A stretch of 54,538 bases of DNA from the NCBI GenBank assembly GCA_903873255.1, contig CAIQNR010000031.1:1-54538 (forward strand). Direction: 5' to 3'. The DNA comes from an uncultured bacterium (GTDB lineage Bacteria; Babelota; Babeliae; Babelales; CAIQNR01). Positions 22,075 to 54,538 of this stretch are shown piece after piece. The notes below the pieces were generated by a model. It was given only the letters and a program-made list of their open reading frames with translations, searched no databases and was not told where the DNA came from. Position numbers and translations under genes: made by a program. Every line of letters begins with the position of its first letter. Positions within the stretch are counted from its first letter, which is position 1.

Positions 22075-22085
22075 TGTTTCCTTTT

Positions 22086-23213: not shown

Positions 23214-24286
23214 TTTGGTTTTCCTCCAGCATCTTTAAGCAACTTTTGATGATCTTCAAAGGCAAGTTTTGAGCCTTTTCGTTCCGCTTCTTTTGGAAGT
23301 CCTGTAGATTTTTCACTCGTTCCTTTTTCTATGTCATATTGTGGCGCATACCAATAATCATACGTGTGTACTTTTTTTACATCATCAAAAATCGTCAAAG
23401 TTATATGAATAAATAAAGGAAGCTCAGGTCGCTTAGGTTCTTCTTTTTTAACTTCTACTTCTTTTGCATCTTTTTTATCACTCTTTTTCTCATCTGTTTT
23501 TATATCTTCTTTTTTTTCTTCTTTCCAATCCTTAAGAACTTCAAGCATTCTTACCTTCTTAGGTTCTTCTTTTTTTGCATCTTTAGAATCTTTTTTTTCA
23601 GGTTGTGCAGGCTCTTCTTTTTTATCTTTATTTTGATCCTTAGGTTTTTCTGCCTGCTTTTCTAACAAAAATTCAAGCTTCATGCTCTTAATACCACCAA
23701 GTATTTGATACCCACGAATTCCATTATGAGAACCTGGGATAAATCTTTTAGGATCAAGTTTTTCTGATTGCTGATGCGTTAATAAAAATTCACCAGAATT
23801 TTCTTTATCTGGCTCAAGACGATACATAATACGAGACATTCTAACTTGTGGCTCGCCATACATGGTTGTTGCATTGGCAGTTATAAAAGTGAACATTTTA
23901 AGATTGCCAATTTCATCTGTTTCATACACAAAAGATTGTGGTACTTTTTCGTCTTTTTTTTCATCTTTTTTGTCAGTATTATTGACATCTTTTTTTGAAT
24001 CTTTTTCATCCTTTTTTTCTTCAGGAGATTCTTTTGCTCCGCCCTCTTCATCTTGATTTTGCAATTTTTCATCCCACACAACTGTAGGAATAAAAATACC
24101 AGAAATTTCGCGATCCCATACTTGTTGAATAATAGTCATTTTACGTTCAAGACCCGAAAAAGTGACCACGCGCTGAAATACAGTATTGCTTTGAGAAAGA
24201 GACTGAAAAAGTATTGTGCTCAGACCCACACTTATGACCATTGCGATCATAACTTCTATAAGAGAAAAACCTTTAACGAGCTTCAC
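23210..24286 (-). CDS. gspJ: Type II secretion minor pseudopilin GspJ-like with K/E/D-rich insertions
   Basis: KG^FSLIEVMIAM cleavage/methylation motif, RIMYRL, ELPLFIHITL; GTG start at 24286 with GGAG RBS. Confidence 0.72.
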   Translation of the reverse strand: MKLVKGFSLIEVMIAMVISVGLSTILFQSLSQSNTVFQRVVTFSGLERKMTIIQQVWDREISGIFIPTVVWDEKLQNQDEEGGAKESPEEKKDEKDSKKDVNNTDKKDEKKDEKVPQSFVYETDEIGNLKMFTFITANATTMYGEPQVRMSRIMYRLEPDKENSGEFLLTHQQSEKLDPKRFIPGSHNGIRGYQILGGIKSMKLEFLLEKQAEKPKDQNKDKKEEPAQPEKKDSKDAKKEEPKKVRMLEVLKDWKEEKKEDIKTDEKKSDKKDAKEVEVKKEEPKRPELPLFIHITLTIFDDVKKVHTYDYWYAPQYDIEKGTSEKSTGLPKEAERKGSKLAFEDHQKLLKDAGGKPK

Positions 24287-24719
24287 TTTTTTTCTCCTGC
24301 ATCTCAAAACCATAATGATAAAGATCTGCTATTCGCTTCTTATCAGCTTCAAACCACTCAGCAGTCACCCGTTCTTGATACAATCCCTCAAAACGAGAAA
24401 GTGCCGAATCAGATGGAATTGGCAACTGTTCATACACTACTTTTGTCTCTGGATCTGTAAATGTTTTTTCTATTTTTTTTGATTCTTTTTGATTTACTGC
24501 CAGCTGAGATGAGCTATTTTCTAAATTAATTTTTGGCAGCAATAGCATATTTTTTAAATAATAAAGTCGTTGAATCTTAAATGTATTAAATATAACGCGC
24601 CGAAAAACCTTCTGCTGTAACACTGCAAATGACCCAATCGACACTGCAATAATGGTAAGCGCTATAACTGTTTCTATCAAGGAAAAACCATTACGAAAGT
24701 GGTTTTTGAAATGTATCAT
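24273..24719 (-). CDS. gspI: Minor pseudopilin GspI-like
   Basis: NG^FSLIETVIAL motif, size and position in the operon. Confidence 0.68.
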   Translation of the reverse strand: MIHFKNHFRNGFSLIETVIALTIIAVSIGSFAVLQQKVFRRVIFNTFKIQRLYYLKNMLLLPKINLENSSSQLAVNQKESKKIEKTFTDPETKVVYEQLPIPSDSALSRFEGLYQERVTAEWFEADKKRIADLYHYGFEMQEKKSEAR

Positions 24720-25287
24720 ACATCACACACTGAGCAGTAAAAGGATTAAGAACAATACTTATCTGTTTTGCATCTTTTTCTGATTGATTTTCCGGTTGAT
24801 CAACTATATTGATAATAACTTCTTGCGTGGTCCCATCAGGCATCATAAAAAACCATATGTTTTCTGTCTTACGCGAAAGACCGCCAGCTGCAATTTCATC
24901 AACCCCCTGAACATACAGTTGTTGAATCTCAAACGTTTCGGGCCACGTGTAAGAGTTAGAAGCAAAATGTAATGCTACCGGAGCAAAGATTGGTTTTTTT
25001 TCTGCATCCAATGTATCGGTCTGCTGACTTACTTCTATTTTTCTGTGTTCCAAATCAAAAGTTATTTTATGAAGAATATTATTTTCAAGCCCGCGCAGCC
25101 AAACTTCACTCATAACAGTATTGAGTTCAGAAGCAAAAGCTTTGCGCTCCTGAACCACTCGACGGCCAAGCAGATTGGGTACTGTAATGGCCATGAGCAA
25201 GCCCACAAGCGCAAGAGCTATAATAATTTCTATAAGACTAAAGCCTGGTTTATTCCCAGACTGTGAGACGTTCTTCTTCAGGGGCAT
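24691..25287 (-). CDS. gspH: Minor pseudopilin GspH-like
   Basis: PG^FSLIEIIIAL motif, FMMPDG; start placed at the ATG at 25287 (GGGAG RBS). Confidence 0.72.
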   Translation of the reverse strand: MPLKKNVSQSGNKPGFSLIEIIIALALVGLLMAITVPNLLGRRVVQERKAFASELNTVMSEVWLRGLENNILHKITFDLEHRKIEVSQQTDTLDAEKKPIFAPVALHFASNSYTWPETFEIQQLYVQGVDEIAAGGLSRKTENIWFFMMPDGTTQEVIINIVDQPENQSEKDAKQISIVLNPFTAQCVMYDTFQKPLS

Positions 25288-25669
25288 CTTCTCCCTTTGG
25301 TCCAAAAGAATATAATTCGTAAGGATGTTCGCCCTGTGCAGTTCTTTCGTATTGGAAATCATTGTTCCAATTATCAACTTTTATTTTATCCATGTAAGGG
25401 CCTGCCCACTTAGCACCAATACGTTCATCGCTTGGCTTTTCTGCAAGATCATTAAGTTCTGTTGGATAGCTACCTGTATCAGCATAGAAAATATCAATCG
25501 ATTGCTTAAAACCTTTTAAATCAGATTTTGTTGAACTAATTCTTTGTTTATCAAGAACCCCAGTCAAATTAACAACTGCTACACCCGCTACAATCGCCAT
25601 AATTGCAACTGCTATAATAATTTCTATTAAACTGAATCCAGAGCGGAGCGATCTTTGTAGTACCTTCAT
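25250..25669 (-). CDS. gspG: Type II secretion major pseudopilin GspG
   Basis: SG^FSLIEIII, FYADTGSYP, WAGPYM, DNWNNDFQY, LYSFGPKG (T2SSG domain). Confidence 0.9.
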   Translation of the reverse strand: MKVLQRSLRSGFSLIEIIIAVAIMAIVAGVAVVNLTGVLDKQRISSTKSDLKGFKQSIDIFYADTGSYPTELNDLAEKPSDERIGAKWAGPYMDKIKVDNWNNDFQYERTAQGEHPYELYSFGPKGEDAPEEERLTVWE

Positions 25670-25688
25670 AAAAACCTTTCATCATATA

Positions 25689-26903
25689 TTAGTGAACCAT
25701 ACTGCTCATCTTCATAATTGGCATGGTGATACCCATAATAACAAATCCAACTATCAATGCTGTTACTAATGTCATCATAGGATTTAGCAATGCTGCTAGT
25801 CCATCAGCAAATTCAGTTAATTCTTTTTCATACGTATCGCCTACACCAATAAGCATCATATCTAATTTTCCCGTTTCTTCACCAGTGCTAATTAAATAGG
25901 TTGCCATTGGAGGAAAAATGCCAGTTTGCTTAAGATACTGTGCTATTTTACCTTGTTTTATAATTTTTTCTCGTGCTTCTTTTAAAGATTCTTTCAAAAC
26001 TCTGTTGTCAACAATGTTACAAACAATGTCGAGCGCCTCTGATAAGTTAACGCCACCTTCTAGCAGCATGCCCAATGTTTTTGAAAATTGAACAATTGCA
26101 CCAATCTTTGTAAATGTACTTATAACTGGCATTTTTAATTTAAAGCGATCAAAATTAAGAGCGCCACTTTTAGTTGATTTCCAATACAAAAATGCCATCA
26201 CAACACTCACAATCGATCCAATCAGCACCACATAATGATTCAAAATAATACCTGACATCGCAACTAAAAGTACTGTTGCAAAAGGCAAATCGCCACCTTG
26301 TTGTTCAAAAATACCCATTAACTTAGGAACTATGGTTGTCATAAGACCAATAACAACCAAAAAGATAAGGCCCAATTGTATCAATGGCATACGAATAGCA
26401 TCTGTAATTTTTCCGCTTAATTCTTCGCTTCGTTCAAGATACTGAGTTAAACGATCAAGAATAACTTCTAATTTCCCGCTCGCTTCCCCTGCACGAATTA
26501 GTTGGATATATAAATTTTCAAAATCATGGGGATAACTGCTCATACCATCTGCCAAACCTTGTCCCTCTTTAAGGCCATCTTTAAGAGACACAATAATGCG
26601 ATGCATACGCCCTGTAAATTGCTCAATCAAAAGTTCAATAGCAGGAAGTAATGGGATACCTGATTTTAAAAGCACGGAAAGCTGTTTCGTGAATAATATT
26701 TTCTCTTTGAGTGTGATTGAACTAGAAAAAAGGCGTTCTAAGAAACTTTCCGACTGTATCGCTTTGTGTGCGGCAACAATAGAATATGCTAAAAGACCTT
26801 TACGCTGCAACAACTCGCGCGCTGAACCTTCAGAAGGTGCATCAAGAGAGCCTGTTACTTTTTTGCCGTCACGAGAAAATGCTTGGTATACAAACAAAGC
26901 CAT
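25689..26903 (-). CDS. gspF: Type II secretion inner-membrane platform protein GspF/PilC
   Basis: FTKQLSVLLKSGIPL, AGEASGKL, GEETGKLD duplicated T2SSF domains. Confidence 0.93.
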   Translation of the reverse strand: MALFVYQAFSRDGKKVTGSLDAPSEGSARELLQRKGLLAYSIVAAHKAIQSESFLERLFSSSITLKEKILFTKQLSVLLKSGIPLLPAIELLIEQFTGRMHRIIVSLKDGLKEGQGLADGMSSYPHDFENLYIQLIRAGEASGKLEVILDRLTQYLERSEELSGKITDAIRMPLIQLGLIFLVVIGLMTTIVPKLMGIFEQQGGDLPFATVLLVAMSGIILNHYVVLIGSIVSVVMAFLYWKSTKSGALNFDRFKLKMPVISTFTKIGAIVQFSKTLGMLLEGGVNLSEALDIVCNIVDNRVLKESLKEAREKIIKQGKIAQYLKQTGIFPPMATYLISTGEETGKLDMMLIGVGDTYEKELTEFADGLAALLNPMMTLVTALIVGFVIMGITMPIMKMSSMVH

Positions 26904-33138: not shown

Positions 33139-34377
33139 TTAAAAATGCATTGCTATATCAAACCCAATAGTAGGTGCATCAAGTGATCGCTTACCATTAA
33201 AAGGTATTTGAGCAAAGACAGAAAAAATAGGTGAAACAACACCACGCGTTCCCAGATTGTCATAACGAAACTGCATAAATATATCATGAGTTGTCCATTC
33301 CTTAAGGCCCATTGCCTTACTTGCGGTAATAGAAGAAAAATCATTATTTAAAATACAGAGTTTGTCATGGCCATGTTTTGTATGTTGATAAGCAATTCTA
33401 ACAACCATAGTATCGGTTAGTTGAGGTTCAAGATATAAATTAAAACGTTGCGTAATGCCATATTCTTTACGTGCATCAGCTTTTTGTAAAAACAAAAAAT
33501 CTGTTTGTAATAGATCGGTCATAATTCTTCTATGCTTAGTACAACTAAATATTTGTTCAAATCCTACATCGATACCAGCACGTAAAAACTTTTTAAATTT
33601 AAGATCAATTCCAGCACCAAAAGGCAATGCAAATGCACCATCATTACCAAATGCATATGAGAATGCTTGATCTTCATTTTTACACTTACCCGTTGGGAAA
33701 GAAACACCTAAGCGTGCATTAATTCCAACCTCTTTTAACCATTCTTTCTCTTGTAAAAAAACACGCATCCAATGAAGGTACGTCGTTAGATCACCAGGCC
33801 CAACAGCAGACCAATCTGTCAATCTAAGACCTCCAAATGTTTCTACATTATTAAAAAAGTTATCGGTCAGTAATTGGTGTGTAAGCATATCGTCATAAGT
33901 CAAATTCTGAGTTTGATCAACCCATGATGTATGATTAATTCGTGCTATATACACAGGCATACGAAACCGCAAAAACCACTCACTAAAAAAACGATAGCTG
34001 TATTCAAAAACTGAACTTTCAAAAGAAAGATCGCCATTAATAACAAAATGGCCTCTCATTCCGTTATCATCATCAATATTAATATTTTGGCCAATCTGGC
34101 TTTCTATAGATCCAACAGGAAAACCTTTAAGCATTGCTAAAGCATCCTGTGTTGTTGCTAAATATTGAAGTGGATTTACTTTATCACCATGGCAAGATCT
34201 GCCCTGCCCCGCAAAAGAAATACTTGGTATTACAAGAATTTCATGTTTTTTAAGCCGTTGTAAATGGGATCTAAAATTAATATCAGCAAGAGATCTTTCA
34301 AAAAAATTTATTGCGTCCACTGAAAAGCAACTTATTAATACACTCGATAAAATTATTTTTTTCATACAATTACTCAT
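33139..34377 (-). CDS. Putative outer-membrane beta-barrel protein
   Basis: Signal peptide (MKKIIL..VDA; start may be 34365), amphipathic strands, GPGDL and VSFPTG motifs, terminal IGFDIAMHF beta-signal. Confidence 0.7.
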   Translation of the reverse strand: MSNCMKKIILSSVLISCFSVDAINFFERSLADINFRSHLQRLKKHEILVIPSISFAGQGRSCHGDKVNPLQYLATTQDALAMLKGFPVGSIESQIGQNINIDDDNGMRGHFVINGDLSFESSVFEYSYRFFSEWFLRFRMPVYIARINHTSWVDQTQNLTYDDMLTHQLLTDNFFNNVETFGGLRLTDWSAVGPGDLTTYLHWMRVFLQEKEWLKEVGINARLGVSFPTGKCKNEDQAFSYAFGNDGAFALPFGAGIDLKFKKFLRAGIDVGFEQIFSCTKHRRIMTDLLQTDFLFLQKADARKEYGITQRFNLYLEPQLTDTMVVRIAYQHTKHGHDKLCILNNDFSSITASKAMGLKEWTTHDIFMQFRYDNLGTRGVVSPIFSVFAQIPFNGKRSLDAPTIGFDIAMHF

Positions 34378-34382
34378 TTTTA

Positions 34383-37310
34383 TTATTCAAGAATTTGAAG
34401 GCCATCATTTGTTACTACAATTAAAGACCCTAATGCGGAATTACGTACTATACCAGCAATACGTGTTGGGGTAGTTTGAAAAGGAATTGATTGAATATGA
34501 CGAGCAATCATACCAGTAAATGGCTCTGCAAATCCCAAATCACTTGGCAAAGCTTGTAACAATGCAAGATTATTTCCATACGCAGACCTTGTAATAAAGG
34601 GTACCGCACCATCGGTTATGTAATAATTTCTGTACTCACCAATATGCACATAGGGACTTATTATTCCAAGAAGCAGCCCATCTGGTATGCGTTGGACCGT
34701 AGTACTTGTAACACCACCTGTAGCATCTGCAATAGAAAATCTGTAAACAGAAGAAAGTTTATAACCAACTGACGATGCGAGCACATCAATCTGCCCGCCA
34801 ATTGTATCTTTTGCTATATCATATGAAAAACCAGTAGTAGAAAATGGCACAAGACGTGTTATAGCAGTTGGCCCTTCTGCCACTGAAATTTTATTCCATA
34901 AAGCACTTTCTGTACCTGTTGCTGTAGAAATAACACCTCCAGCCCCCGTTGTATACAGACCCATACTTGTTGCAAGAAGCGCAAGATCACCAGACACTAC
35001 ACAATCGGAAAAACTTCCAAATTGAGGCAATGCTAAAGAAGTTGGAGTTGCCAGTGGAACCGGAGTTACCGTACTGCCCTGTAACTGTGCTGTGGGGATG
35101 CGATCTAATTTTTTATTGGTAAGTACATACAGATTTTGGCCATCAGAAGTTAATTTTCTAATATTGGTATAAGAACCTAATTGAACCCATGAAAAATTAT
35201 TAATCCCATTAAATGATTTTTGCAAACTTGTCCAACCTGTTCCATCTTCTGCTCGTAGTACCGCAAGACCTCCAGTACCCCCTATAACAAGATAGGTGCC
35301 ATAAGAATAAGTTGTCTCTTTTACTAATGTTGCACTTGTAATGGCTCCAAGATTAGCAAGAGCTCCGCCAGACATTGTGATCATATAAGTATTTGAAGTT
35401 GGTGCGCTGCTAATGGTACCAGTAGTAAATATTTTATTGTCAGAACCGACAAAATTTCCTATACGTGGCGCAAAATAATTAGCCCCATTATCTTGTCCTG
35501 TTTCTACTAAAACAATTTTTTCATATCCCGTTGCAAGCATCAAAGATGTTCTAGAGCCTACCGTTGTGGTAAATCCAACAGAATTTTTTGGGAAATCAAA
35601 AAGACCATAAATACCTTCTGTAGCAGAAAATGTTTGTTGAAGTTGATCATTAAAACCAACAGTTTCATCAGTAGTTAAGCCTCCTAAAAGATTATCTGTA
35701 GCTCCAGCTCCCCAAGTAGAACTAATTACCGTATCAATAGTACTGCTTGAACTCCCCTGTAATGCAAACATTGTCCCTTGATTAGAATCAAAACTAATAC
35801 CAAAAAAACCAGTTGTACTATCTGTTGCATTTATTACTTGTTGCCATGGTGTCCACGCTTTAATTGCACCATTATTATCAAGCAATGCTTGAGAATAAAA
35901 AATTCCTGCAAAATCTGCCGTTCCTGTAACAGTAGAAACAAATACTGTATCTTTAAAAACTTGAATATCCTGAATGTTTCCAATGGTAACTCCACCACCA
36001 ACTTGAGCAGATGCATCAGTTTCTATGGGAAGATGAGATGGCACTGTAGGCGCAACTTGAAAAGCTCTTCTTACAATGCGAGAGGGAGTAACATTGGTAT
36101 CGTACAATGTTGTTAAATTTGTGCCTGAATTAATAACTTTACTTGCAAGAACCCCATGAGATGGATCAGTCCATACAGTTGAACGAAGATTTACTAACCT
36201 TTTATCAACAATCGGTAATGCATACACCGTTTTTTGATTGTTAGTATTTGATGCATTTCCTACAACAACAAGATATGACGGACCTGTCGTTGTATGCATA
36301 ACACGCACTTTACGTAAACAAGCAACTGTTCCTGCACCAACCCCACCAAGAATAGTATTAGTTCCTGTAAATAATGCTCCTTGAACAAATGGAGCTATAA
36401 TAACTTTTGGAATTATTATGTATTTTCCTATTTCATTAAGAACCTGAGTCCCTGCAAGATACACCATTGCAATACCAATTGCGCCATCAGTACCAGCTCC
36501 ATTGCCCGTGGATTGAAACACAATATAACCACGCTGTAAAACTTCATCCCAAACCATATCAAGAATAGTATGATCAAATGTTGGCGTAGTTCCAATTGTT
36601 AAAAAATTAAGAGTTGGATCCAAAGGCACCGCCTTAATACCTGTATCATTTAAAAGTGCTGCACACTGTATAATTCCTGTATACCCTGCTTGCAATAATG
36701 CAACACCTGATCCTATATCGCCAAAATTTCCACCTGTTTTTTTTACAATATTAAAAATATAATTATTTGAAGCTGCTATTTTAAGAACGCCAGCAGTAAC
36801 TGATCCATCAACATTTTGAATCCCTTGAGCATCTTTAATACCAGTAATAGAAGTTACTACAACTGGAGTTGAACCTAAACCACTACTAATCCAATAAAGA
36901 TTACTTGGGGTATCGTTACAAACTACTACAGGGGTTGTTCGATAAAGCCCCATCGCAGCTATTTTTTGTCCTATCAATGGATTAGCTTGATCGGCAACTC
37001 CATTGAGATTTACAAGCGTTGGCGCAAGAGGGGAGAAAGTTGAATTTAAAATAGAACATCCAGCTACTGAAAACTGGCGTATAGAATCAGGAGATATGTT
37101 ATCAGTTGAGCTGAACCTTGCTGTATAAAAAAGACCAGTATCTCCTGCTGATTGCGAAACATCAAAAGAAAAACTTTTCCCTGCTGGGGCATCAGCATCA
37201 CCAGTAATAACAACTCGTCCATTACAACTAAAAAACAAACTCACCGATAGGAGCAATTGCATACATTTTAAAGAAATCATACATACCCTCAATAACATTT
37301 TTATTCTCAA
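34383..37310 (-). CDS. Large secreted Thr/Gly-rich beta-rich (propeller-like) surface protein
   Basis: N-terminal hydrophobic leader; blade-like repeats LVIGGTGGL, LYVLTNKKL, LLATSMGLY, LIVVTNDGL. Start uncertain. Confidence 0.75.
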   Translation of the reverse strand: MRIKMLLRVCMISLKCMQLLLSVSLFFSCNGRVVITGDADAPAGKSFSFDVSQSAGDTGLFYTARFSSTDNISPDSIRQFSVAGCSILNSTFSPLAPTLVNLNGVADQANPLIGQKIAAMGLYRTTPVVVCNDTPSNLYWISSGLGSTPVVVTSITGIKDAQGIQNVDGSVTAGVLKIAASNNYIFNIVKKTGGNFGDIGSGVALLQAGYTGIIQCAALLNDTGIKAVPLDPTLNFLTIGTTPTFDHTILDMVWDEVLQRGYIVFQSTGNGAGTDGAIGIAMVYLAGTQVLNEIGKYIIIPKVIIAPFVQGALFTGTNTILGGVGAGTVACLRKVRVMHTTTGPSYLVVVGNASNTNNQKTVYALPIVDKRLVNLRSTVWTDPSHGVLASKVINSGTNLTTLYDTNVTPSRIVRRAFQVAPTVPSHLPIETDASAQVGGGVTIGNIQDIQVFKDTVFVSTVTGTADFAGIFYSQALLDNNGAIKAWTPWQQVINATDSTTGFFGISFDSNQGTMFALQGSSSSTIDTVISSTWGAGATDNLLGGLTTDETVGFNDQLQQTFSATEGIYGLFDFPKNSVGFTTTVGSRTSLMLATGYEKIVLVETGQDNGANYFAPRIGNFVGSDNKIFTTGTISSAPTSNTYMITMSGGALANLGAITSATLVKETTYSYGTYLVIGGTGGLAVLRAEDGTGWTSLQKSFNGINNFSWVQLGSYTNIRKLTSDGQNLYVLTNKKLDRIPTAQLQGSTVTPVPLATPTSLALPQFGSFSDCVVSGDLALLATSMGLYTTGAGGVISTATGTESALWNKISVAEGPTAITRLVPFSTTGFSYDIAKDTIGGQIDVLASSVGYKLSSVYRFSIADATGGVTSTTVQRIPDGLLLGIISPYVHIGEYRNYYITDGAVPFITRSAYGNNLALLQALPSDLGFAEPFTGMIARHIQSIPFQTTPTRIAGIVRNSALGSLIVVTNDGLQILE

Positions 37311-39714: not shown

Positions 39715-40518
39715 TTAGCGCCATGATGGGCGCTTACGCTTAGGAGCATCTTCTTTAGTTCGCTCTGTTTGAATTGGGCCATTAGTAAGACCACGAATAA
39801 ATTGATGAACGTAAGGATTATCAGTTTCCCAAATAGTTTTTGCATCACCAAAAAATTGAATCTTGCGTTCATTAAGTAATGCAACATGGTCAACATACTT
39901 AAAAATTTCCACATCATGAGAAATTACAATTGCAGTAATGCCTAATTTTTTTTGAGTATTAAACATCAATTCATGAATAATACGTGTTGTGATTGGGTCA
40001 AGACCTGTTGTTGGCTCATCGTATAAAATAATTTTTGGATTTACGATCAAAGTACGAGCAAGACCTACTCGCTTTTTCATACCACCAGAAATTTCTGATG
40101 GGTATTTGTCCATAGTTTGCTCTGGAGAAAGATTAACCAATGTTAATTTTTCTTTAACAATAGGAAGAACTTCTTCTTTAGGAATTCCTTTTTCCAGCAA
40201 AGGAAGACCGACATTTTCAAAAACAGTCAGAGAGTCGAGAAGTGCAGCAAATTGGAAAACATATCCAACTTTTTTAAAGACATGCTTTAGTTCTGCTTCA
40301 TCCAATTTTGTGATATCAACACCATCAATTAAAATGCTACCAGAAGTTGGTTTTATAAGCCCAATAATTTGTTTAAGAAGAACAGACTTACCTTCTCCTG
40401 ACTTTCCTATAATACACGTTGTTTGCCCTTCAGGAATACTGAGAGTTACACCATCTGTAATCCATTCTGAATCATCAGAAAAACGCTTACGTACATTCAC
40501 CAACTCTATCACAGGCAA
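39715..40518 (-). CDS. mlaF: ABC ATPase MlaF/Mkl
   Basis: GKSGEGKS, FQFAALLDSLTVFENV, ISGGMKKRVGLAR, YDEPTTGLDP. Confidence 0.92.
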   Translation of the reverse strand: MPVIELVNVRKRFSDDSEWITDGVTLSIPEGQTTCIIGKSGEGKSVLLKQIIGLIKPTSGSILIDGVDITKLDEAELKHVFKKVGYVFQFAALLDSLTVFENVGLPLLEKGIPKEEVLPIVKEKLTLVNLSPEQTMDKYPSEISGGMKKRVGLARTLIVNPKIILYDEPTTGLDPITTRIIHELMFNTQKKLGITAIVISHDVEIFKYVDHVALLNERKIQFFGDAKTIWETDNPYVHQFIRGLTNGPIQTERTKEDAPKRKRPSWR

Positions 40519-40528
40519 ACTCCTTGCA

Positions 40529-41335
40529 TTACTTAAATAACAATGTTGTTAAGAAGTAGTCGGCTATCAAAATAGAAATAGAACTTATTACCACACTTTG
40601 GGTTGTTGCAAGACCAACACCTTTGGCACCACCAGATGTATAAAATCCTTTATAACAACCAACAGAAGAAAAAATAAAACCAAAAGCTGCTGCTTTTAGA
40701 AGGCCTCCCGTAATATCGGCAAGCTCAACAAATGTTTTAATCCCAGAAATATACTGTTCACCATTGATAAAAAGTACATTAACGCAAATCAAATAACCAC
40801 CGACAATACCGCAGATCATGCTAAATACTGCCAAAAATGGAATGATAATTGTGGCACCCAAGATACGTGGCACCATAAGATATTGATTAACATCAATACA
40901 AAGCGTCTGAAGAGCTTCAAGCTGTTCGGTAATGCTCATTGTCCCAAGCTCAGCAGTCATTGCCGAACCTGCACGACCAGTAACCATTAAGCCAGTAAGT
41001 ACTGGGCCAAGCTCTCGAATTAAACTAAGTGCAACAACTGGACCAATAAAATCTTCGGCACCAAATCGTTTGAATCCTATATAACTTTGCCATGCTAAAA
41101 CAGCTCCAGTAGAAAAACCGGTCAACAAAATAATACTGAGCGATTCAACGCCTATGGTACACATTTGATCAAATAATTGATGAACGCGTAATTTAGAAGT
41201 AAAGGCAGTTTTGATAACGCCCCACATAAATAGAAAGAAACTACCAATCGTATCAAGGGTAGAAACTACATATGCACCAACAGAAAAAACTAGACCTTGT
41301 ACCATTCTAGCCATAGAAAGAACCGATGAAATCAT
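40529..41335 (-). CDS. mlaE: ABC permease MlaE
   Basis: IRELGPVLTGLMVTGRAGSAMTAELGTM, GGAKGVG.ATT.SVV. Confidence 0.94.
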   Translation of the reverse strand: MISSVLSMARMVQGLVFSVGAYVVSTLDTIGSFFLFMWGVIKTAFTSKLRVHQLFDQMCTIGVESLSIILLTGFSTGAVLAWQSYIGFKRFGAEDFIGPVVALSLIRELGPVLTGLMVTGRAGSAMTAELGTMSITEQLEALQTLCIDVNQYLMVPRILGATIIIPFLAVFSMICGIVGGYLICVNVLFINGEQYISGIKTFVELADITGGLLKAAAFGFIFSSVGCYKGFYTSGGAKGVGLATTQSVVISSISILIADYFLTTLLFK

Positions 41336-41371
41336 AGTACTACTCCTACTGATCGGTGCATATATAAAAAA

Positions 41372-41668
41372 TTATTCGTAAACGTCTTCAGCTGAAGGTA
41401 GTGGCATGTTATAGCTAATATTTGAAGGGTTCGCATGCTTTCTGCTTTTCATAATCGCAATGCTCAATGAACCAAACATAAAAAGCGCAAGGAGTACCCA
41501 GGTAATTTTTTGGAAAACTTCTTGGCCACCTGATCCACCAAATAACATTTGTGAACCGCCACCCATTCCACCAAGTCCCAAGCTGCTTTTACCTTTTTGA
41601 AGTAAAATAATAAAGGCAAGGACGAAAGCTAAAAGAACAAATCCGCTTGTTAGTAATCCAACAATCAT
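41372..41668 (-). CDS. secG: Preprotein translocase subunit SecG
   Basis: ILLQKGK..G.GG..GGS..LFG, KITW, two TMs. Confidence 0.9.
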   Translation of the reverse strand: MIVGLLTSGFVLLAFVLAFIILLQKGKSSLGLGGMGGGSQMLFGGSGGQEVFQKITWVLLALFMFGSLSIAIMKSRKHANPSNISYNMPLPSAEDVYE

Positions 41669-46751: not shown

Positions 46752-49700
46752 TTAGAATCCCCCTGTATCGAGCATATTGTTAAAGTTTTGAGTATTTGAG
46801 CCCTTAGTTGTACTTGGGGTGCCAAGCAACGATCCAAGTGTTGGAAGTGGCGGCTTAGAAACCTGTGGAGGTGTAACAACAGGAGGTGTTGGCGGAACAA
46901 CTGTAACAATAGGTTGTGCTTTTACATAGGCAATACTTTGCTGTTGTATTGTTTGATACAGAGCTACAGAAGTAAGACCACTGTAATTGGAAAGCATTGT
47001 GGTATATAAAGGCGCGTTTGCAACCGGAGCAATAGTAACTTTTGTAAGGTCCTGCCCAACAAGCGAAGTTACCAGTTTTCCAGCAATGGTATACATAAAT
47101 ACTTGGCCTGTCACAAGGCTTACAAGCCCATTAATTGTACTATCTTTTGGATCTAATTTTTGACCATAAGCATGCGATGGTGTTATGAGTCCGGCACTAT
47201 TGATAGTTGCAGCAATAAAGTAATCTTTACCTGTAAGATTTTTAGTTATTGAGCTACCACTATACACAAATCCACCATTTTGGATTGCTTGCACTTCACC
47301 TGTTAAGGTTATATTTGCAAACAATATGCTTGTTGCAAGAGAAGCATAGTACTGCGTGTTTGCGGCGGTAATTGCTTGAATTAAACTTACAGGAAGCCCC
47401 AATGAACTTTGGCATAGAGCAAGTACACCATTACATGGCTGAATAAGTTGTTTAGTTTGATCATAAGCATTACCAGTTACCAAACTAACAATTATTTGAG
47501 GGTTTTCACTTGGATCAACACCAAGGCCATTTGCAACGCCAACTGATGCACCTTTGGTAATAGAAGATGCAAAAACCACATAATCGATGTCATTATTTGC
47601 AAGACCTGTTTGGTTAGTTGTATACACAAAAACACCTTGGCTTATTAAATCTTTGCTTACTGGTGCTAGTGTAAATGAACCAAAGGTAATTGGATTTCCC
47701 AGTTGAGCGCTTTTTGCCATCCAACTTTTTTCTTGATCAATTTCTTTTGGAAGTATGCCCTGTTTTGCAAATTGAGCATCAACAGCAGCATTTGATTGTT
47801 TGCGAGCAGCAGAGATGACGGGGGTAAAACTTGGAGTAATAACTTGGTATTCAACTGCAGCACCTGACGCGATAACACCAATCGATCCTGCATATTTTGG
47901 AGCGCCCTGTTGCTGTTGTGATTGAGAAACGTAAGGAATCCAACTATTTTGTGATGAATCATAACCCTGTTTACCAACTCCAGTATCGGCTACTAAGGAA
48001 ATGTTTGCAGGCGTAACTTCTTGGTTTGTTGGGGCACTTAGCTGAGAACTTCCTGGCATTGCAACCATCGGTGCAGGATAAATATACTGAGGATCCATAC
48101 TAACAGGAAAACTACCCTGCCAATTTCCAGGCTCAACATCTGTTTCTACCCAACATTTTACTACTGCTGTATTACTATTTATTTGCATTTTCATTCTATA
48201 CCAGACACCTGTTTGATAATTAATTGGTGCAATATTTTTATTAATCCAGTCAGCTCCTTGATGTTCATATAACCCAACTGAAGGCGTTATTGTAAGAGCA
48301 TCTCTAAATATAACAAGCGCTTTACCTTTATTATTGAAATTCAAAACATGCATATTTACATCATTAATGCTTTTCCAGAGCTGCTGTTCAAGTATATCTC
48401 TATTTGTAGCTGTTGAATTTTCTAGAACAGTAAGATTATTATAAAGCCCTGTCAGAGCATTTGCGTCGATATATTGATTACTCATAAAGAGACCTACATA
48501 AAAGGCGCCTTGTGTTTCATAAAGCGTACGCCATCTTATTTCTGCGGAAAGCGCCGTTCCATTTGGAACCATAGAAAGATCTTTTTGGTTAATCCAAAAT
48601 TGAGTTGGGGATTGATTAATTTTTACAGAGCTTCCTTGTGTATCAGCTACTACTTGTGTTGGCATACACCCAACTTCTTGTGCAAAACTATTTCTTTGAG
48701 AGTTGTATACCGTTAATCCCTGCGATGGGTTCAATGCAACGCGATTTGTTTGAATACCATACACAGCTCCAGGATCTCCATACATAAGACCTGTTTTACT
48801 ATCTGGCGTAAGTAATTGATTATAAAAACTGCCAAGCCCATAAGCAGAAGTTTGTATAGATGTATTAAGGGAATTATTAAGATAGTTTTGGTAGTAGAGC
48901 AAGCTTCTTTCTTGATTTTTAAGTGTATCATCAAGCTGACTATTGATATCTTGAACTAAAAGACTTTGAGTAAAGCTTGATGTCATAATATTGTCAGTAA
49001 CATATGCCGAAAATTTATGGAGATAATCTGTTTGATTAGCCTTATTGGTAATAGCTTCTTCATCTTTCTGATTTTCACCCACGGTACTCATCGCCATCAT
49101 ACCAGCACTAAGAGCTGCAATAGAAGCTGCAATAGCAATCCCAAGCGGTCCCGCGGCAGCTCCTCCTGTAAAAACTGTTGCTACAGCACCAGCAATCGTT
49201 AAAACTGCTATCGAAATTGCACTAACAATCACTCGGCGATGCTGATTTAACGAAGTCTGAATATTGTTGAATGCAGCAGATGCATCCCCACCATTAACCG
49301 TTGCATTAAGAGCAGCAATACCGCCCGCAATATTAATACTAAGATCAAGAATTGCACCGGCCAAATAGGCAGCCCCTTGCATAATTCCTTGCAGCCCTAC
49401 CTCAACCGCTTTAATCATAAATTTAATTGGTCTAAGTAATGCAACAACCATATTTTTTAAGAAAGTAGAACCCATAGAGTCCATTCCTGCAAAAGGGGTT
49501 CCTCCAGTAGCTGCAATAAAGGGAGCGGCTGCAAGTTCAACTACTGCTTGTGCTATAAATGCAAGCGATCCAGCAGCAAGTTGTACTAATGTTGCAAGAC
49601 CCGATGCAGCCATTCCAACAACATCAACACAGACATCTATAGTTGCATCATTAATACTATTTATAAATCCAGTGATATCGTCTCCTAATGCCCCTCCACC

Positions 49701-51608
49701 CAAAATAACACCTAAAGATTGACCAATAACGCTTCCAACTAAATTTGTTGTTGCCTTAGCTGTAGCACCATAAGCTGCTTGTATGTTTACAAAATTTTCA
49801 GCAAAATCCCCTATATCTGTTTGACTCTGAATCAGAGTTTTTCCACCCTTTACTAACGATTGACCATAGCTAATACCTTCAACAGCACATGCTATACCCG
49901 TATCATAATACCAGAGACTCATGTTCCAATCTTTAAGATACTCCCCTGCTATCTTTACACCTGTATATAAAGCGCTGCCCAATTGCTTCATTGCACCAAC
50001 AAATGAATGTCCAAAATCTGTAAATGCGCTGGTAAATGAATGACCTTGAGGTGCGGCAGTCCCATTATTTGCTGTACTACTAGTAGGTGGAGTTGCAGCA
50101 CCGGCCTTTAAAAAATTAATATCATCAAGATACAAATAGTCTGATGGTTGATAAGAAATAATAATAGGAAATGTATCAAAAAATGATTGGTCTATTGTTG
50201 CTAGTTGCGCCATTGTACTTTCTAAGTTTGCCGTATTAAACAGATAATCAAGAGTATTATTTAGCAATTTGATACCAGAAAAACCAACAAGCGTCATATA
50301 TAAAGGAGTAGGCATATATCCTGAATGGCCCTGCGTAAAGAGAGCATTAAACATACTTGTATAAGTTAAGCCTTCAGATGTTGAACCCTTTGCTGGTTGA
50401 TACTGTAATAATAAATTTCCAAAACTTGTCAGCGAAACATTTCCAGTTTTTTGGTCAACAAGCAACATCCCCTTAAGATTTTGATTTGGTACTAAAGTAA
50501 AAGTACCATCATTATTTTTAACGGTATAAAAAAAAGATGCAAAACCAGGAGCAATAACTCCCGATGCATCTACTATTTTAATAGAAGTTGATAATGGATA
50601 GGTAGCTTTCCCAAAGGTAGCCTCAGTAAATGATTTTTGTGAAAAATAATCAGCTGAACCTTTAAAAATCTGGATTGCATCATACAAAGCAGATGTATCT
50701 TTAATCTGACTCCATTCAACAGATTGAGCAATAGCACGAGCACGAACTATTTCTGTAATAACTAAAAAAACGCGTACAATTTCTGAATTAATACGCAAAT
50801 CCTGAAAGCATTGAGTGTAATAAGCAACTTCAAACTGAGGTATATAGGTGAAAAGCTGCTTTTCTTCATCATGAACATTTGAAAGTAATAATTTTTCATA
50901 ATCAAAAGAAGATGCAATAAGTGATTTAAGATACTTTTGCCATAAAGGAGATTGTACGCAAAGCTTTATTATTGATGAATCTAATCCATTTTTTTTCGAC
51001 TGATAATCATTCTTAGCTTGGGTTAACTGAGATTGATACTTTGCAAGAAGCGGATCTTTTTTTGATGTAGCAATGGCAATTTGCTGCTGCAAGTTATTAA
51101 TTGTTTGTTGTTCAGATTGCAAAACAGTATCAACAACAAGCCCTTGCATTAATGCATATAATCTTCTAATTGCATCCATAACAACAGGTGGCAAATGGAG
51201 CGTATCGTTATAAAAATGAGTAACAGCTTTATCAAGAGAAGGAAGCAGAGCACAAGCAGGATTTGCTGGATCAGGAAAAACTGAAAAAAATTGTTGAAGG
51301 GTAGTTTCTATAACAGAATCAATATTTTGATTTGATCCCACTGGAGTTTGACTAGATGAAGCCGTTCCAGGCAAAGGCACTGGTACATTAGAAGAACTAG
51401 TAGGTGATGCAGACAGAGTAATCACATTACTAGGTGAAGATGTTACTAAAGCAGATTGTATCGGGGTACTAACCGAAAGAGCTTTATTAGATTGCAGAGC
51501 AACAGTTGCAATTGATTGTTTCTTTTTTTTGCTAGTAATAGGAGTTGCAGCATAAAGATATGAAGTCATGCAAAAAAAAATTGTTATATATTTTATAATT
51601 TTATTCAT
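46752..51608 (-). CDS. Giant secreted multi-domain protein (1618 aa) with pore/translocon-like hydrophobic core
   Basis: Signal peptide ending LYA, S/T/P linker, helical domain, about 320 aa Gly/Ala hydrophobic region, coiled coil, beta-sandwich, two VSLVTG repeats, Pro-rich tail. Confidence 0.85.
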   Translation of the reverse strand: MNKIIKYITIFFCMTSYLYAATPITSKKKKQSIATVALQSNKALSVSTPIQSALVTSSPSNVITLSASPTSSSNVPVPLPGTASSSQTPVGSNQNIDSVIETTLQQFFSVFPDPANPACALLPSLDKAVTHFYNDTLHLPPVVMDAIRRLYALMQGLVVDTVLQSEQQTINNLQQQIAIATSKKDPLLAKYQSQLTQAKNDYQSKKNGLDSSIIKLCVQSPLWQKYLKSLIASSFDYEKLLLSNVHDEEKQLFTYIPQFEVAYYTQCFQDLRINSEIVRVFLVITEIVRARAIAQSVEWSQIKDTSALYDAIQIFKGSADYFSQKSFTEATFGKATYPLSTSIKIVDASGVIAPGFASFFYTVKNNDGTFTLVPNQNLKGMLLVDQKTGNVSLTSFGNLLLQYQPAKGSTSEGLTYTSMFNALFTQGHSGYMPTPLYMTLVGFSGIKLLNNTLDYLFNTANLESTMAQLATIDQSFFDTFPIIISYQPSDYLYLDDINFLKAGAATPPTSSTANNGTAAPQGHSFTSAFTDFGHSFVGAMKQLGSALYTGVKIAGEYLKDWNMSLWYYDTGIACAVEGISYGQSLVKGGKTLIQSQTDIGDFAENFVNIQAAYGATAKATTNLVGSVIGQSLGVILGGGALGDDITGFINSINDATIDVCVDVVGMAASGLATLVQLAAGSLAFIAQAVVELAAAPFIAATGGTPFAGMDSMGSTFLKNMVVALLRPIKFMIKAVEVGLQGIMQGAAYLAGAILDLSINIAGGIAALNATVNGGDASAAFNNIQTSLNQHRRVIVSAISIAVLTIAGAVATVFTGGAAAGPLGIAIAASIAALSAGMMAMSTVGENQKDEEAITNKANQTDYLHKFSAYVTDNIMTSSFTQSLLVQDINSQLDDTLKNQERSLLYYQNYLNNSLNTSIQTSAYGLGSFYNQLLTPDSKTGLMYGDPGAVYGIQTNRVALNPSQGLTVYNSQRNSFAQEVGCMPTQVVADTQGSSVKINQSPTQFWINQKDLSMVPNGTALSAEIRWRTLYETQGAFYVGLFMSNQYIDANALTGLYNNLTVLENSTATNRDILEQQLWKSINDVNMHVLNFNNKGKALVIFRDALTITPSVGLYEHQGADWINKNIAPINYQTGVWYRMKMQINSNTAVVKCWVETDVEPGNWQGSFPVSMDPQYIYPAPMVAMPGSSQLSAPTNQEVTPANISLVADTGVGKQGYDSSQNSWIPYVSQSQQQQGAPKYAGSIGVIASGAAVEYQVITPSFTPVISAARKQSNAAVDAQFAKQGILPKEIDQEKSWMAKSAQLGNPITFGSFTLAPVSKDLISQGVFVYTTNQTGLANNDIDYVVFASSITKGASVGVANGLGVDPSENPQIIVSLVTGNAYDQTKQLIQPCNGVLALCQSSLGLPVSLIQAITAANTQYYASLATSILFANITLTGEVQAIQNGGFVYSGSSITKNLTGKDYFIAATINSAGLITPSHAYGQKLDPKDSTINGLVSLVTGQVFMYTIAGKLVTSLVGQDLTKVTIAPVANAPLYTTMLSNYSGLTSVALYQTIQQQSIAYVKAQPIVTVVPPTPPVVTPPQVSKPPLPTLGSLLGTPSTTKGSNTQNFNNMLDTGGF

Positions 51609-51610
51609 AG

Positions 51611-54538
51611 TTATGTTCCCGATGAAAGTTGTTTGGTAAATCGTGCAATATCACTTGCTGTATAAACCAATTCTTGTGGTTTATTTAAGCTAAAACGAGC
51701 AGAACATCCTGATGAAACAAATCCTATAGAATGACCATGCCATACGATTGGATTTCTACCTGCAAGCACTGCTGGGCCAAATACGTTTGTCAAAGAACCA
51801 TCCGTATTTTTTATGCTTAATATAACAAAAATAGTCTCTGGCTGAGTAAAAATTGTTATGACATAGGTTGTTCCAAGCGCAAGAGGAGTCTGAGTACTTG
51901 TACCAGCTGTAGGATACAAAGGATTACTTATTAAATTTTTATTAGCAGTACTCCAAAGTGCTTTTTCAGATACAGTTCCCATAATTTGATGTAAAGGAGT
52001 AATAGGAGAAAGCGCAGACTGTGTTGCAATGGTTGAAGTCATAAACAAACTTTCTGCCGCGCAAAAAGTAATAGGTGATGACTTGCTTGAACTATAAAGT
52101 CCACAAAAACGATACTGATTCATTTGATCTGTAACCCCAGAAATCCAACGGGCCTGATTAAATATAATTCCAGCTACCCATGGGGATTGGCCAGAACTTA
52201 TCTGTACTTCTGCTTGAATTTGATAGGTCCGAACACCAGTAACATCATTGATAGTAGGAGGTATATATTCTGTAAAAATAGAATTTAAACCCGCTTGTGA
52301 TGAATCACCTTGCGGTAGTTGGGGTGTAGCAGAAGGAATCATAGAATATTGATAGAATGAATTATCGGTAGCACTGTACTCCCAATTTCCACATCTACCA
52401 ACATTATACCAAGTATGATCGACAGGATAAGACGGAATTGTTTGTGAAATTTTTGGAAGTGATGATGGAGGAATAATAGGAAGACCTGATGGCGCAATCG
52501 CGGCAATGGTGAGCTTTCCATTTAAAAACTTCCATAAATAGGTATCTGCTAAACTTTTTGTACTAAGCAAGGGAGGAACAGACCAAGGAGTACTGTAATA
52601 AACGGGGCTAGGAGGAAAATAAATAATAGGATTTTTCTTATTAGGAGAAGGCTGAACTATTGCAGAAGGCGTATACATAGGTGCATATAAAAAATATTGG
52701 TCCCATACCATAGGATTGGATATATAATTAGTTGCCACACTTGCAGAAATTAATGTTTGTAAAAAATAGGTTTGCTGATCAGTAAACAAGCTCGTAATAT
52801 CTGCCTGCTTAGCTGCTAATATATTTAATCTCCACGATGCTGCTTGTTCACTTAATTGAATTTGCGCCTGTGATGCTGCTTGAATTTGATTAATCTTTAC
52901 CTGAAAATCTACTTGTACCTTAGTTTCTTTTGCCTTAATATCGGCAAATGTTTGTGCATCTGCAGCATCAATCCAAGAAATGGCAAGCGATGACCCTTGC
53001 ATAATACCCATTTGAAGCATCATATCAGCAGCTGTTTTTGTACGATCCGCCCATACAGCTGCAGTATCCCATGATTTCGCTTTGTTCAGTTCTTTTTCTA
53101 TTGATATCTCTTTACCTTTTGACGTTAATGTATCAAGCACCCCTTCTTTTGATTTTTTTAATGCCTTTATTTGGTTATTAATCTCAATCGTCCGCGGATC
53201 TTTTTTGGGTAATTTTTTTGCCAGCGCATTCATTTCTTTTACTTGGCTTTTGATAGTACTATCTAATTTTTCTTTTGAATGGTTGATATTAGTCAAAAGT
53301 CTTTTTTTAGTAAGCCATCCATCATCGCCCTTTCTAATCTTTCTTGTCTGAGCTGCAAGCTCTTTATACATCCCTTGATATTTAGCACCATCATTTTTAA
53401 ATTTTTCACCTAGATCTGCTACATACTCATCAAAAGTCATAGCTGTATCTTCACTCAGAGGTTCTATCATAGGCTCTAGTCCTTCAAGATCTGAAACAAC
53501 ACCTTCTTTTGCCGCATCACTAAGAACATCGCTAACATCAGCAGATCTAGAAATACCTGTTAACTCATCTACTGCATTCATAGCAGCTGTATCATTTTTC
53601 AGAGCAGAAATAGTATCTTCTACTTCACTTAAGTTAGAAAAAGATGAATCAAATTTTGATGCTACCCCTGATACTGACCTTATTCCAACTTGTTCAGCAG
53701 CTATTTCAGCCAATTCTGCCGAAACTGCTCCAGGCAAAGGTTTGAGAGCTCCAGTAGAATCAGCAGCAAGCTCAACCGATGAACCATCTGGCAAGGTTTC
53801 TTTTAAAATATTACCAGAAGCGTTTTCAATAATCGAACCACCGCTCTTAACAGTACTTTTGAGAACATTTCCAGCACCATCAGCAAGAGCTTCGCCTACT
53901 ACTTCAGCCAAATCACCCACAATAGAAGCCTGTATTTTAGGAATGGAAGTGAACTTTTTTATCTGCTGTGTTAATGCAAACCGCATTGGTTTATAAGCCC
54001 AAAAGTTAACAACTTCAGGAAGTTTTATATGTTTTTGAAATACAAAATAATGCATTGCTTGTGAGTACGTTTGCAAGCATTCGCACCGTTCAAGAGCTGT
54101 GTAAATAAGTAGTTGATTGGTAAGATTCTGAATGACCGTTATTTTTTTATTGCCATACCATTGCATACTCGTAGTAATAGAATCCCACACTGCATTAATC
54201 CAACCCTTGATACACTGGAAATATGGAAGATGATGAGTTTCTATCCGTGCAAAATCTTTAAAATGCGCTCTCTGTAACTCTACAATTTCGATGGCAAGGC
54301 TAATTGGACCCTGATCTTCTTCATAAGCATTCAATAAAACTTTTTTCTTGCTATCAATTATTTTCTGAAGATCATCTGCAGCTTTACAAGCGGCTTGAAT
54401 TTTTTGGTACATTGTTGCTTCGTCAATAGTAATAAGTACATGACGAAGTATCTCTCTTTTCTTTTTAGAAAGTCCTGAATTTTCAAGAAAATAGGTATGT
54501 TTTTCTGTAATAAAACCATCTAAAGCAATAAAAGAAAC
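51611..54538 (-). CDS. Giant protein (>975 aa, 5' partial); C-terminal half paralogous to the downstream gene
   Basis: Frame is open from 54412 to the window edge with no stop; acidic then basic helical regions, Q/A coiled coil, beta-sandwich ending HSIGFVSSGC; 2-bp gap to the next gene. Confidence 0.85.
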   Translation of the reverse strand, partial: VSFIALDGFITEKHTYFLENSGLSKKKREILRHVLITIDEATMYQKIQAACKAADDLQKIIDSKKKVLLNAYEEDQGPISLAIEIVELQRAHFKDFARIETHHLPYFQCIKGWINAVWDSITTSMQWYGNKKITVIQNLTNQLLIYTALERCECLQTYSQAMHYFVFQKHIKLPEVVNFWAYKPMRFALTQQIKKFTSIPKIQASIVGDLAEVVGEALADGAGNVLKSTVKSGGSIIENASGNILKETLPDGSSVELAADSTGALKPLPGAVSAELAEIAAEQVGIRSVSGVASKFDSSFSNLSEVEDTISALKNDTAAMNAVDELTGISRSADVSDVLSDAAKEGVVSDLEGLEPMIEPLSEDTAMTFDEYVADLGEKFKNDGAKYQGMYKELAAQTRKIRKGDDGWLTKKRLLTNINHSKEKLDSTIKSQVKEMNALAKKLPKKDPRTIEINNQIKALKKSKEGVLDTLTSKGKEISIEKELNKAKSWDTAAVWADRTKTAADMMLQMGIMQGSSLAISWIDAADAQTFADIKAKETKVQVDFQVKINQIQAASQAQIQLSEQAASWRLNILAAKQADITSLFTDQQTYFLQTLISASVATNYISNPMVWDQYFLYAPMYTPSAIVQPSPNKKNPIIYFPPSPVYYSTPWSVPPLLSTKSLADTYLWKFLNGKLTIAAIAPSGLPIIPPSSLPKISQTIPSYPVDHTWYNVGRCGNWEYSATDNSFYQYSMIPSATPQLPQGDSSQAGLNSIFTEYIPPTINDVTGVRTYQIQAEVQISSGQSPWVAGIIFNQARWISGVTDQMNQYRFCGLYSSSKSSPITFCAAESLFMTSTIATQSALSPITPLHQIMGTVSEKALWSTANKNLISNPLYPTAGTSTQTPLALGTTYVITIFTQPETIFVILSIKNTDGSLTNVFGPAVLAGRNPIVWHGHSIGFVSSGCSARFSLNKPQELVYTASDIARFTKQLSSGT

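Follow-up and report, generated by a model that had tools for sequence, protein, structure and literature searches.

The locus studied here bears on the question of how bacteria of the phylum Babelota (Dependentiae, TM6), once inside a food vacuole, gain access to their protist hosts. According to the available sections of its description, one cultured member of the phylum, after ingestion, releases vesicles inside the food vacuole and has reached the host cytoplasm within 3 h (PMC6561590), and the available sections of two Babelota genome papers name Sec and type II secretion, and no toxin or pore former (PMC6561590, PMC4776705). The window, i.e. the whole stretch of 54,538 nucleotides that was analysed (contig CAIQNR010000031.1 of assembly GCA_903873255.1), carries a gene, C, which had been described as encoding a Sec-secreted protein with a free-standing, membrane-inserting domain resembling the hydrophobic hairpin of the type III secretion translocator SctE. 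What does this protein belong to, and what might it do? We give a probability of roughly one half to the reading that C and two neighbouring genes, A and B, encode a secreted, protease-activated, multi-component membrane-disrupting complex that would act on the protist vacuole membrane.

The genome to which the window belongs (G000; 898 kb in 45 contigs, 97% complete) was studied together with a comparison set of 261 genomes of the class, which we have treated as Babeliales; Dependentiae and Babeliales are also the names under which homologues of the neighbouring genes are recorded. The features of gene C are as follows.

46752..51608, minus strand: gene C (P0001), an ORF of 1618 aa, the terminal gene of the A-B-C operon
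51549..51608, minus strand: C aa 1-20, predicted signal-peptide-like N-terminus (by eye and heuristic)
50094..51326, minus strand: C aa 95-505, folded and mostly helical, read as a prodomain (AlphaFold2 pLDDT mostly >90; conserved in homologues)
50043..50093, minus strand: C aa 506-522, disordered linker ending in Q521/G522, the putative cleavage site (pLDDT <50; homologue motif)
49245..50042, minus strand: C aa 523-788, amphipathic and hydrophobic helices rich in Gly/Ala (composition, AlphaFold2)
49080..49232, minus strand: C aa 793-843, hydrophobic hairpin with a T-G-G turn (hydropathy, AlphaFold2, homologues)
48810..49079, minus strand: C aa 844-933, long polar helix, coiled-coil-like (AlphaFold2; homologous to the long helix of B)
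47799..48809, minus strand: C aa 934-1270, beta-sandwich with a weak likeness to concanavalin-A/lectin folds (pLDDT 75-93 in the modelled part, up to aa 1174)
46929..47741, minus strand: C aa 1290-1560, a repeat of 130-140 aa in two copies, also present in a giant protein, D (hhalign)

The region singled out in the preliminary description (49080-50040, minus strand) corresponds to aa 523-843 of C, and its first residue, aa 523, lies one residue behind the conserved Gln-Gly site of the protein. The hydrophobic, Gly/Ala-rich stretch with the turn TVFTGGAA (aa 811-818, at 49155-49178) was confirmed, and the hairpin is the most hydrophobic part of C: Gly and Ala make up 28-30% of the residues over aa 561-880 versus 7-24% elsewhere, and the top 19-residue Kyte-Doolittle mean (KD19) of the protein, 2.33, falls on aa 793-811, with a value of 1.95 in the second arm. 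The hairpin is real and conserved. Of 98 C homologues, 74 have a KD19 of at least 1.8 in this segment, and in 72 it contains the peak of hydrophobicity, by 19-mers, past residue 30; its turn reads TGG in 51, SGG in 8, a T/S-F/L-G variant in 9 and otherwise in 30. In 36 of 97 homologues, the first arm and the long helix are more than 200 residues (964 at most) apart and the second arm is then acidic, so that a simple two-pass hairpin is insufficient as a description. About 15 long homologues (P0080-P0107; 1480-2716 aa) have an extra conserved-looking domain between the first V-x-x-Q stretch and the amphipathic region; that this domain might be a B-type prodomain was rejected, with one marginal match in 98. 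The Sec-type N-terminus is supported as well, the signal-peptide call being made by eye and by a crude hydrophobicity heuristic that is passed by 31 of 36 C homologues.

The AlphaFold2 model of C (aa 95-1190, built from 51 sequences; mean pLDDT 74, pTM 0.47) consists of a confident domain at aa 95-505, a disordered linker, long helices of low confidence at aa 525-933 and a confident beta-sandwich. The hairpin is modelled as a helix at 791-813, a turn and helices at 821-872 and 874-933, with a pLDDT of 36-70 around it, and the label 'coiled coil' rests on the long polar helix of this model. Of what had been proposed, a conserved hairpin of a membrane-inserting type next to a long helix is supported, and kinship with SctE is not. 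Of the two outcomes that had been named as refuting the proposal, one is observed, in that all matches outside the family are to generic amphipathic sequence; the other, a compact soluble bundle, is not seen in the model.

Evidence for the kinship was sought at the level of profile, sequence and fold. A hairpin turn like that of C is known from IpaB/YopB, apolipoprotein L and the ClyA-family toxins, and SctE proteins have no Sec signal peptide and are encoded next to a class II chaperone gene. The SctE family profile PF04888 (SseC) had no match in the genome of the window at E <= 10, and was not among the best 25 of 39 families listed for 19 C homologues at the same threshold. A profile of C aa 440-1190, searched against 1.84 billion representatives, matched 532 proteins at E <= 0.001; the best 150, which were listed, comprise about 120 members of the C family followed by proteins that match the amphipathic stretch alone. 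Among 28 non-family matches that were scanned, most have apolipoprotein-like or tape-measure matches and none has a match to an SctE family. With the C model, no Foldseek match reached E <= 0.001, and the ranks listed do not include an SctE protein, the hairpin region being modelled at low confidence. Furthermore, PF00771, the type III/flagellar export gate, exceeds its cut-off in one of the 261 genomes and was not found in that of the window, in agreement with the reported lack of type III secretion genes; the gate is absent from 49 of the 50 C-carrying genomes, and no class II chaperone gene lies beside the operon in ten mapped loci. The sole FHIPEP (SctV/FlhA) gene over the cut-off, G071:C11:179248-181099, comes in two overlapping pieces, and its genome also has A-B-C. 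At the sensitivity used, C is not a member of the SctE family. That it is a displaced SctE homologue seems to us extremely unlikely, the appearance of the hairpin turn being set against the missing profile and sequence links, the lack of an SctE fold among the Foldseek ranks listed, the Sec-type N-terminus and the lack of a type III system.

Matches to other known families are equally scarce. Searches with Pfam on P0001 and P0002 found no family, the ESM Atlas gave no usable match to C aa 520-960, and NCBIfam, PHROGs and Pfam searches with the homologue sets returned scattered noise and compositional tape-measure matches. PDB sequence searches with profiles of A, B and C hit designed helical bundles and synuclein, and nothing at family level; neither these searches nor the Foldseek ranks listed gave a colicin-type pore domain for the hairpin of C. 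Phage tape-measure proteins and apolipoprotein-like repeats are the sole outside matches of C aa 523-790. The PHROGs tape-measure family was matched in 7 of 19 C homologues (best E 7e-10), in matches that are compositional, multi-register and confined to this region, and apolipoprotein L was matched in 2 of 19 (E 0.34 at best). The possibility that C is a phage tape-measure protein was rejected, there being no whole-length match and no tail gene module; tblastn with C aa 523-960 found nothing at E <= 10 in 50,697 phage records and four noise rows (E 6-7) in plasmids. The best-probability rows of Foldseek are lectin-type folds (lentil lectin, probability 0.84, E 0.36, a weak match), and for aa 934-1270 the concanavalin-A-like rows have probabilities of 0.66-0.85 and E-values of 0.3-1.5. 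No matching family or solved structure was found for A, B, C or D, and a literature search limited to openly accessible articles listed no publication on the operon.

Contrary to what had been proposed, C is not free-standing; it belongs to a conserved three-gene operon with which two further genes co-occur. The part of gene B that lies within the window has the following features.

51611..54538, minus strand: gene B (P0002), 975 aa seen, truncated at its start where the contig ends; 2 bases lie between its end and the start of C; a distant paralogue of C
53930..53941, minus strand: motif P-K-I-Q closing the B prodomain, with a putative cut after Q203 of the open frame
52961..53029, minus strand: apolar/amphipathic helix of B, leading into the long helix (sequence)

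A, B and C lie on one strand and in this order in all 30 genomes in which a wide stretch was examined; in the genome of the window, contig C42 carries the start of A at its end. C was found in 50 of the 261 genomes (54 rows, of which 4 weak amphipathic-only rows were dropped), B in 49 (50 rows, 1 weak row dropped) and A in 48, with neither A nor B ever occurring without C. FastTree trees of the three proteins from 29 genomes have 16-20 supported splits in common and one conflict, and on this basis the inheritance of the operon is judged to be vertical and single-copy. By the same crude heuristic as used for C, signal-peptide-like starts are present in 27 of 30 A and 27 of 30 B proteins. Around the operon, an M23 peptidoglycan peptidase gene points away from A in all ten mapped loci, uvrC follows C in seven of the ten, and no phage genes were found.

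By plan, B is a short version of C, with an optional prodomain, an apolar helix, a 90-aa helix and a beta-sandwich. Its profile matches the core of C at 92% (hhalign; E 6e-7, 138 collinear columns), or at 27% (E 7e-4) with shallower alignments, and on these comparisons B is a distant paralogue of C. In the B of the window, about 300 charged low-complexity residues separate the Q site from the apolar helix, and no segment exceeds a KD19 of 1.5. This lack of a strongly hydrophobic segment counts against the reading as a membrane-disrupting complex. A complex prediction for C aa 785-1176 with mature B scored 0.14 against a mark of 0.32, which gives no verdict for or against binding. A, on the other hand, had no match to B or C in profile comparison and is confidently predicted as a mostly helical domain; as a candidate for the activating protease it was set aside, since no catalytic pattern was seen among its conserved residues and it matches no family. 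In G056, A and B form one ORF of 975 aa (L087:6837-9761); it was rejected as a joint protein because of a second signal peptide inside the ORF, and probably arose from a lost stop codon.

The two proteins recall the translocator pairs SctE/SctB (IpaB/IpaC, YopB/YopD) in being encoded by partner genes and in combining a two-arm hairpin in one with a single apolar helix in the other, each near a long helix; they differ in their signal-peptide-like starts, prodomains and C-terminal beta-sandwiches, and no sequence or profile link between the two sets was found, nor a fold link among the Foldseek ranks listed. A functional analogue of SctB/SctE made of unrelated proteins is conceivable, in which B and C would open the vacuole membrane as a channel or as a fusion device and so let effectors brought by Sec and type II secretion or by vesicles enter the host cytosol. 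Such a true translocon is favoured by the parallel with two hydrophobic translocators (PMC6140923, in its available sections), by the absence of the type III gate from 260 of the 261 genomes and by the many secreted orphans and ankyrin proteins of the cultured member, as given in the available sections of its description (PMC6561590); nevertheless we regard it as improbable, for no cargo, bacterium-to-pore conduit or chaperone gene was identified, and a lytic pore is as compatible with the present data as a channel.

The ClyA-family multi-component alpha-pore-forming toxins (Hbl, Nhe, AhlABC, YaxAB) are products of operons whose secreted helical proteins are in part paralogous and have a hydrophobic hairpin, features that A-B-C have in common with them. 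They differ in that A is unrelated to B and C, and in that prodomain, Gln site and lectin-like domains are not features of the ClyA family, whose components all have one helical-bundle fold; for A-B-C no Pfam or PDB match to this fold was found, and HblB (2nrj) in the Foldseek search of the C model is at noise level (E 0.79, probability 0.07).

Further evidence concerns the proposed activation. Immediately ahead of the amphipathic region, homologues of C contain V-x-[VAP]-Q and then [GS]-[FW]-[FW]. The strict form, V-x-[VAP]-Q/[GS]-[FW], is present in 40 of 91 C linkers versus 2.2 expected in shuffles and in 52 of 1309 other windows, counts in which the motif was read off the same sequences and kin are non-independent; it is missed by 51 of the 91 linkers, including that of P0001 itself, which reads A-A-P-Q/G-H (Q521/G522). 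As the motif had been derived from C sequences and P0001 misses it, it was tested on B. In this separate test, the C-derived P4-P1 pattern was found at 23 of 48 B prodomain ends versus 4.4 expected, and a loose form at 46 of 48 versus 20.7 expected. In G020, G056, G102, G104 and G108 (family f6), B has no prodomain and its helix comes directly after the signal peptide, which is the best sign that the helix would need a free N-terminus. The first 18 residues after the Gln have a mean hydrophobic moment of 0.41 versus a background of 0.22 (40 C homologues), and the 30 residues after the motif contain 4.3% His (1.4% overall) and 4.5% Trp (1.1% overall). Q521/G522 of C is likely to be a cleavage site.

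Precedents for such a release are available. The membrane-active amphipathic segment of adenovirus protein VI is, according to the available part of the source, inactive until released (10.1101/857581), and subtilisin-like proteases remove the Gln-ending leaders of subtilin, Pep5 and epilancin 15X, according to the available sections of PMC5812297. With protein VI and with the LanP-cut leaders of class I lantibiotics C would share a lytic helix that is unmasked by a protease, an analogy and no homology; unlike in these, the helix of C heads a 1100-aa multidomain chain. Because subtilisin-like proteases cut Gln-ending leaders, an S8 protease was sought, and the following genes outside the window are of relevance.

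G000:C6:21962-23804 (L120:529-2370): gene of the S8 subtilisin, located behind dnaN-recF-like genes and truncated where the contig ends
G000:C1:10797-18770 (L092:5798-13771): gene of D, the giant protein of 2657 aa, on contig C1
G000:C43:9702-11507 and L123:14847-16892: secreted-looking orphan used as a control

The genome of the window has a single S8 gene, which exceeds the PF00082 cut-off and has a signal-peptide-like start and the Asp/His/Ser motifs. In a search made after the motif had suggested such a protease, PF00082 was found in 49 of the 50 genomes with C and in 5 of the 211 others. An orphan of 380-400 aa follows the S8 gene in five of eight mapped genomes.

A-B-C might also be an antibacterial weapon, whose bacteriocin-like amphipathic helices would be freed by the subtilisin and act, aided by the M23 peptidase, on competing bacteria in the vacuole. 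The maturation of Gln-ending leaders in lantibiotics (PMC5812297, in its available sections), the neighbouring M23 gene and weak matches of the post-Q helix to dermcidin and PSM-beta (E 0.05-1.2) point this way; these matches are at noise level, however, the ten mapped loci have no small immunity gene or polymorphic toxin tip, and the inheritance is vertical and single-copy, so that this is in our view very unlikely.

The second co-occurring gene encodes D, in which a signal-peptide-like start is followed by a charged, low-complexity region of about 400 residues, then by a conserved helix, first amphipathic and then apolar, and by C-type repeats. The two repeats of C match each other at 99.4% (hhalign), and they match at least three places in D (E 1.2e-10). 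With a single-protein query, D was found in 40 of the 50 genomes with C and in 1 of the 211 others, its homologues being 1750-2770 aa long in 41 of the 261 genomes; in G071 it is split into two ORFs. G012 has D and S8, and A, B and C were not found in it (90% complete, about 60 contigs), which a gap in the assembly may explain. In families f2, f3 and f11, A-B-C, D and S8 are jointly missing and the control orphan, present in 152 of the 261 genomes, is kept (4 of 4, 39 of 41 and 9 of 10 genomes, respectively). A single control gene and perhaps three to five losses underlie the co-occurrence, which is not statistical proof. Some copies of the control orphan have an insert that by eye we take to be a J-domain. 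S8 and D lie outside the operon among housekeeping genes; a dedicated S8-D cluster was rejected, as the two are 20-50 kb apart among such genes in seven of eight mapped genomes and further apart in G001.

D and the lectin-like domains bring another explanation into play, namely that the proteins form an envelope or surface structure of the bacterium itself. The hairpin would then anchor C in the bacterium's own membrane, B, C and D would assemble into a coiled-coil stalk or coat with a lectin tip, serving attachment or the extracellular particle, and the subtilisin would mature the subunits. A lectin-like beta-sandwich after a long helix, a repeat protein of 1800-2700 aa, the M23 gene facing away from A in 10 of 10 mapped genomes and a strictly vertical single-copy inheritance, which fits a structural surface complex and is unlike that of fast-turnover toxins, are all in line with it. 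Left without explanation are the free N-terminus of the His/Trp-rich amphipathic helix and the apolar stretch of 270 aa before the hairpin, and we hold the explanation to be rather unlikely.

We therefore return to the membrane-disrupting complex, in which C is likely a secreted, protease-activated, membrane-inserting subunit acting together with its paralogue B. A, B and C would leave the cell via Sec and then probably via the type II secretion system or vesicles. The folded N-terminal domain would cover the apolar part until the co-occurring subtilisin cuts after the Gln, as is suggested by the motif, the disorder of the linker, the prodomain-less forms of B and the co-occurrence. From the character of the sequence, the new His/Trp-rich amphipathic N-terminus would bind and thin the membrane and the T-G-G hairpin would insert. 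The long helices of B and C might then oligomerise, and the lectin-like domains and the repeats shared with D might bind a glycan or a cell surface. His-rich amphipathic helices suit an acid compartment, and it is for this reason, and for the passage of the cultured member from food vacuole to cytoplasm, that the host vacuole is taken as the target; the operon is known here from genomes, and its link to the cultured isolate is that of the same phylum. Gene order, co-occurrence, conservation, paralogy, the conserved hairpin and the enrichment of the motif are observed, and cleavage, binding and pore formation are putative. Against this reading count the pLDDT of 36-70 of the helical region, the wide spacing of the first arm and the long helix in 36 of 97 C homologues, the failure of the searches to find a homologue of known function or a fold match at E <= 0.001, and the absence of the operon from four fifths of the class, although the phylum is held to be intracellular throughout.

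By sequence A-B-C would be a new family, and by function a variant of protease-activated multi-component membrane-attack systems. The wider proposal, that A, B, C, D and the subtilisin make up a protease-armed translocon or vacuole-breaking complex, delivered by Sec and type II secretion and unrelated to known translocators and pore-forming toxins, is tentative and somewhat unlikely; if true, several families of Babeliales would have a way out of the protist's food vacuole that needs neither type III nor type IV secretion. Should A-B-C be a pore or a translocon, a new family of proteins that cross eukaryotic membranes would be represented by it. From the division into genomes with and without the operon, two lifestyles are predicted for the phylum, one cytosolic or lytic and one vacuole-bound. 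With five genes to start from, and with a cleavage site and a protease predicted, the question becomes accessible to work on purified proteins and liposomes and to proteomics on infected cultures.

With regard to secretion genes, gspF and pseudopilin genes lie at 22086-26903 of the window, and gspC-, gspD- and gspL-like genes are found about 8 kb downstream of the operon in G001, with look-alike ORFs in G009, G016 and G043. No secretin gene was found in the assembly of the window; as gspC and gspD follow the same MoxR gene in G001, it is probably within the gap after contig C41. Two orphans of 412 and 975 aa with signal-peptide-like starts and no Pfam match are located at 33139-37310 of the window; homologues of the two lie next to the G020 pseudopilin cluster, and G000:C30:10915-13887 resembles the longer one by eye. 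In G046, three tandem ORFs of 131 aa with the same start (L030:13502-15029) resemble IS200-type transposases. The genes at 39715-41668 and 20428-22095 of the window, downstream of the operon, we take to be mlaE/mlaF-like and secG-like; an MlaD protein was also found by Pfam, and mlaE/F genes are near the operon in six of the ten mapped genomes.
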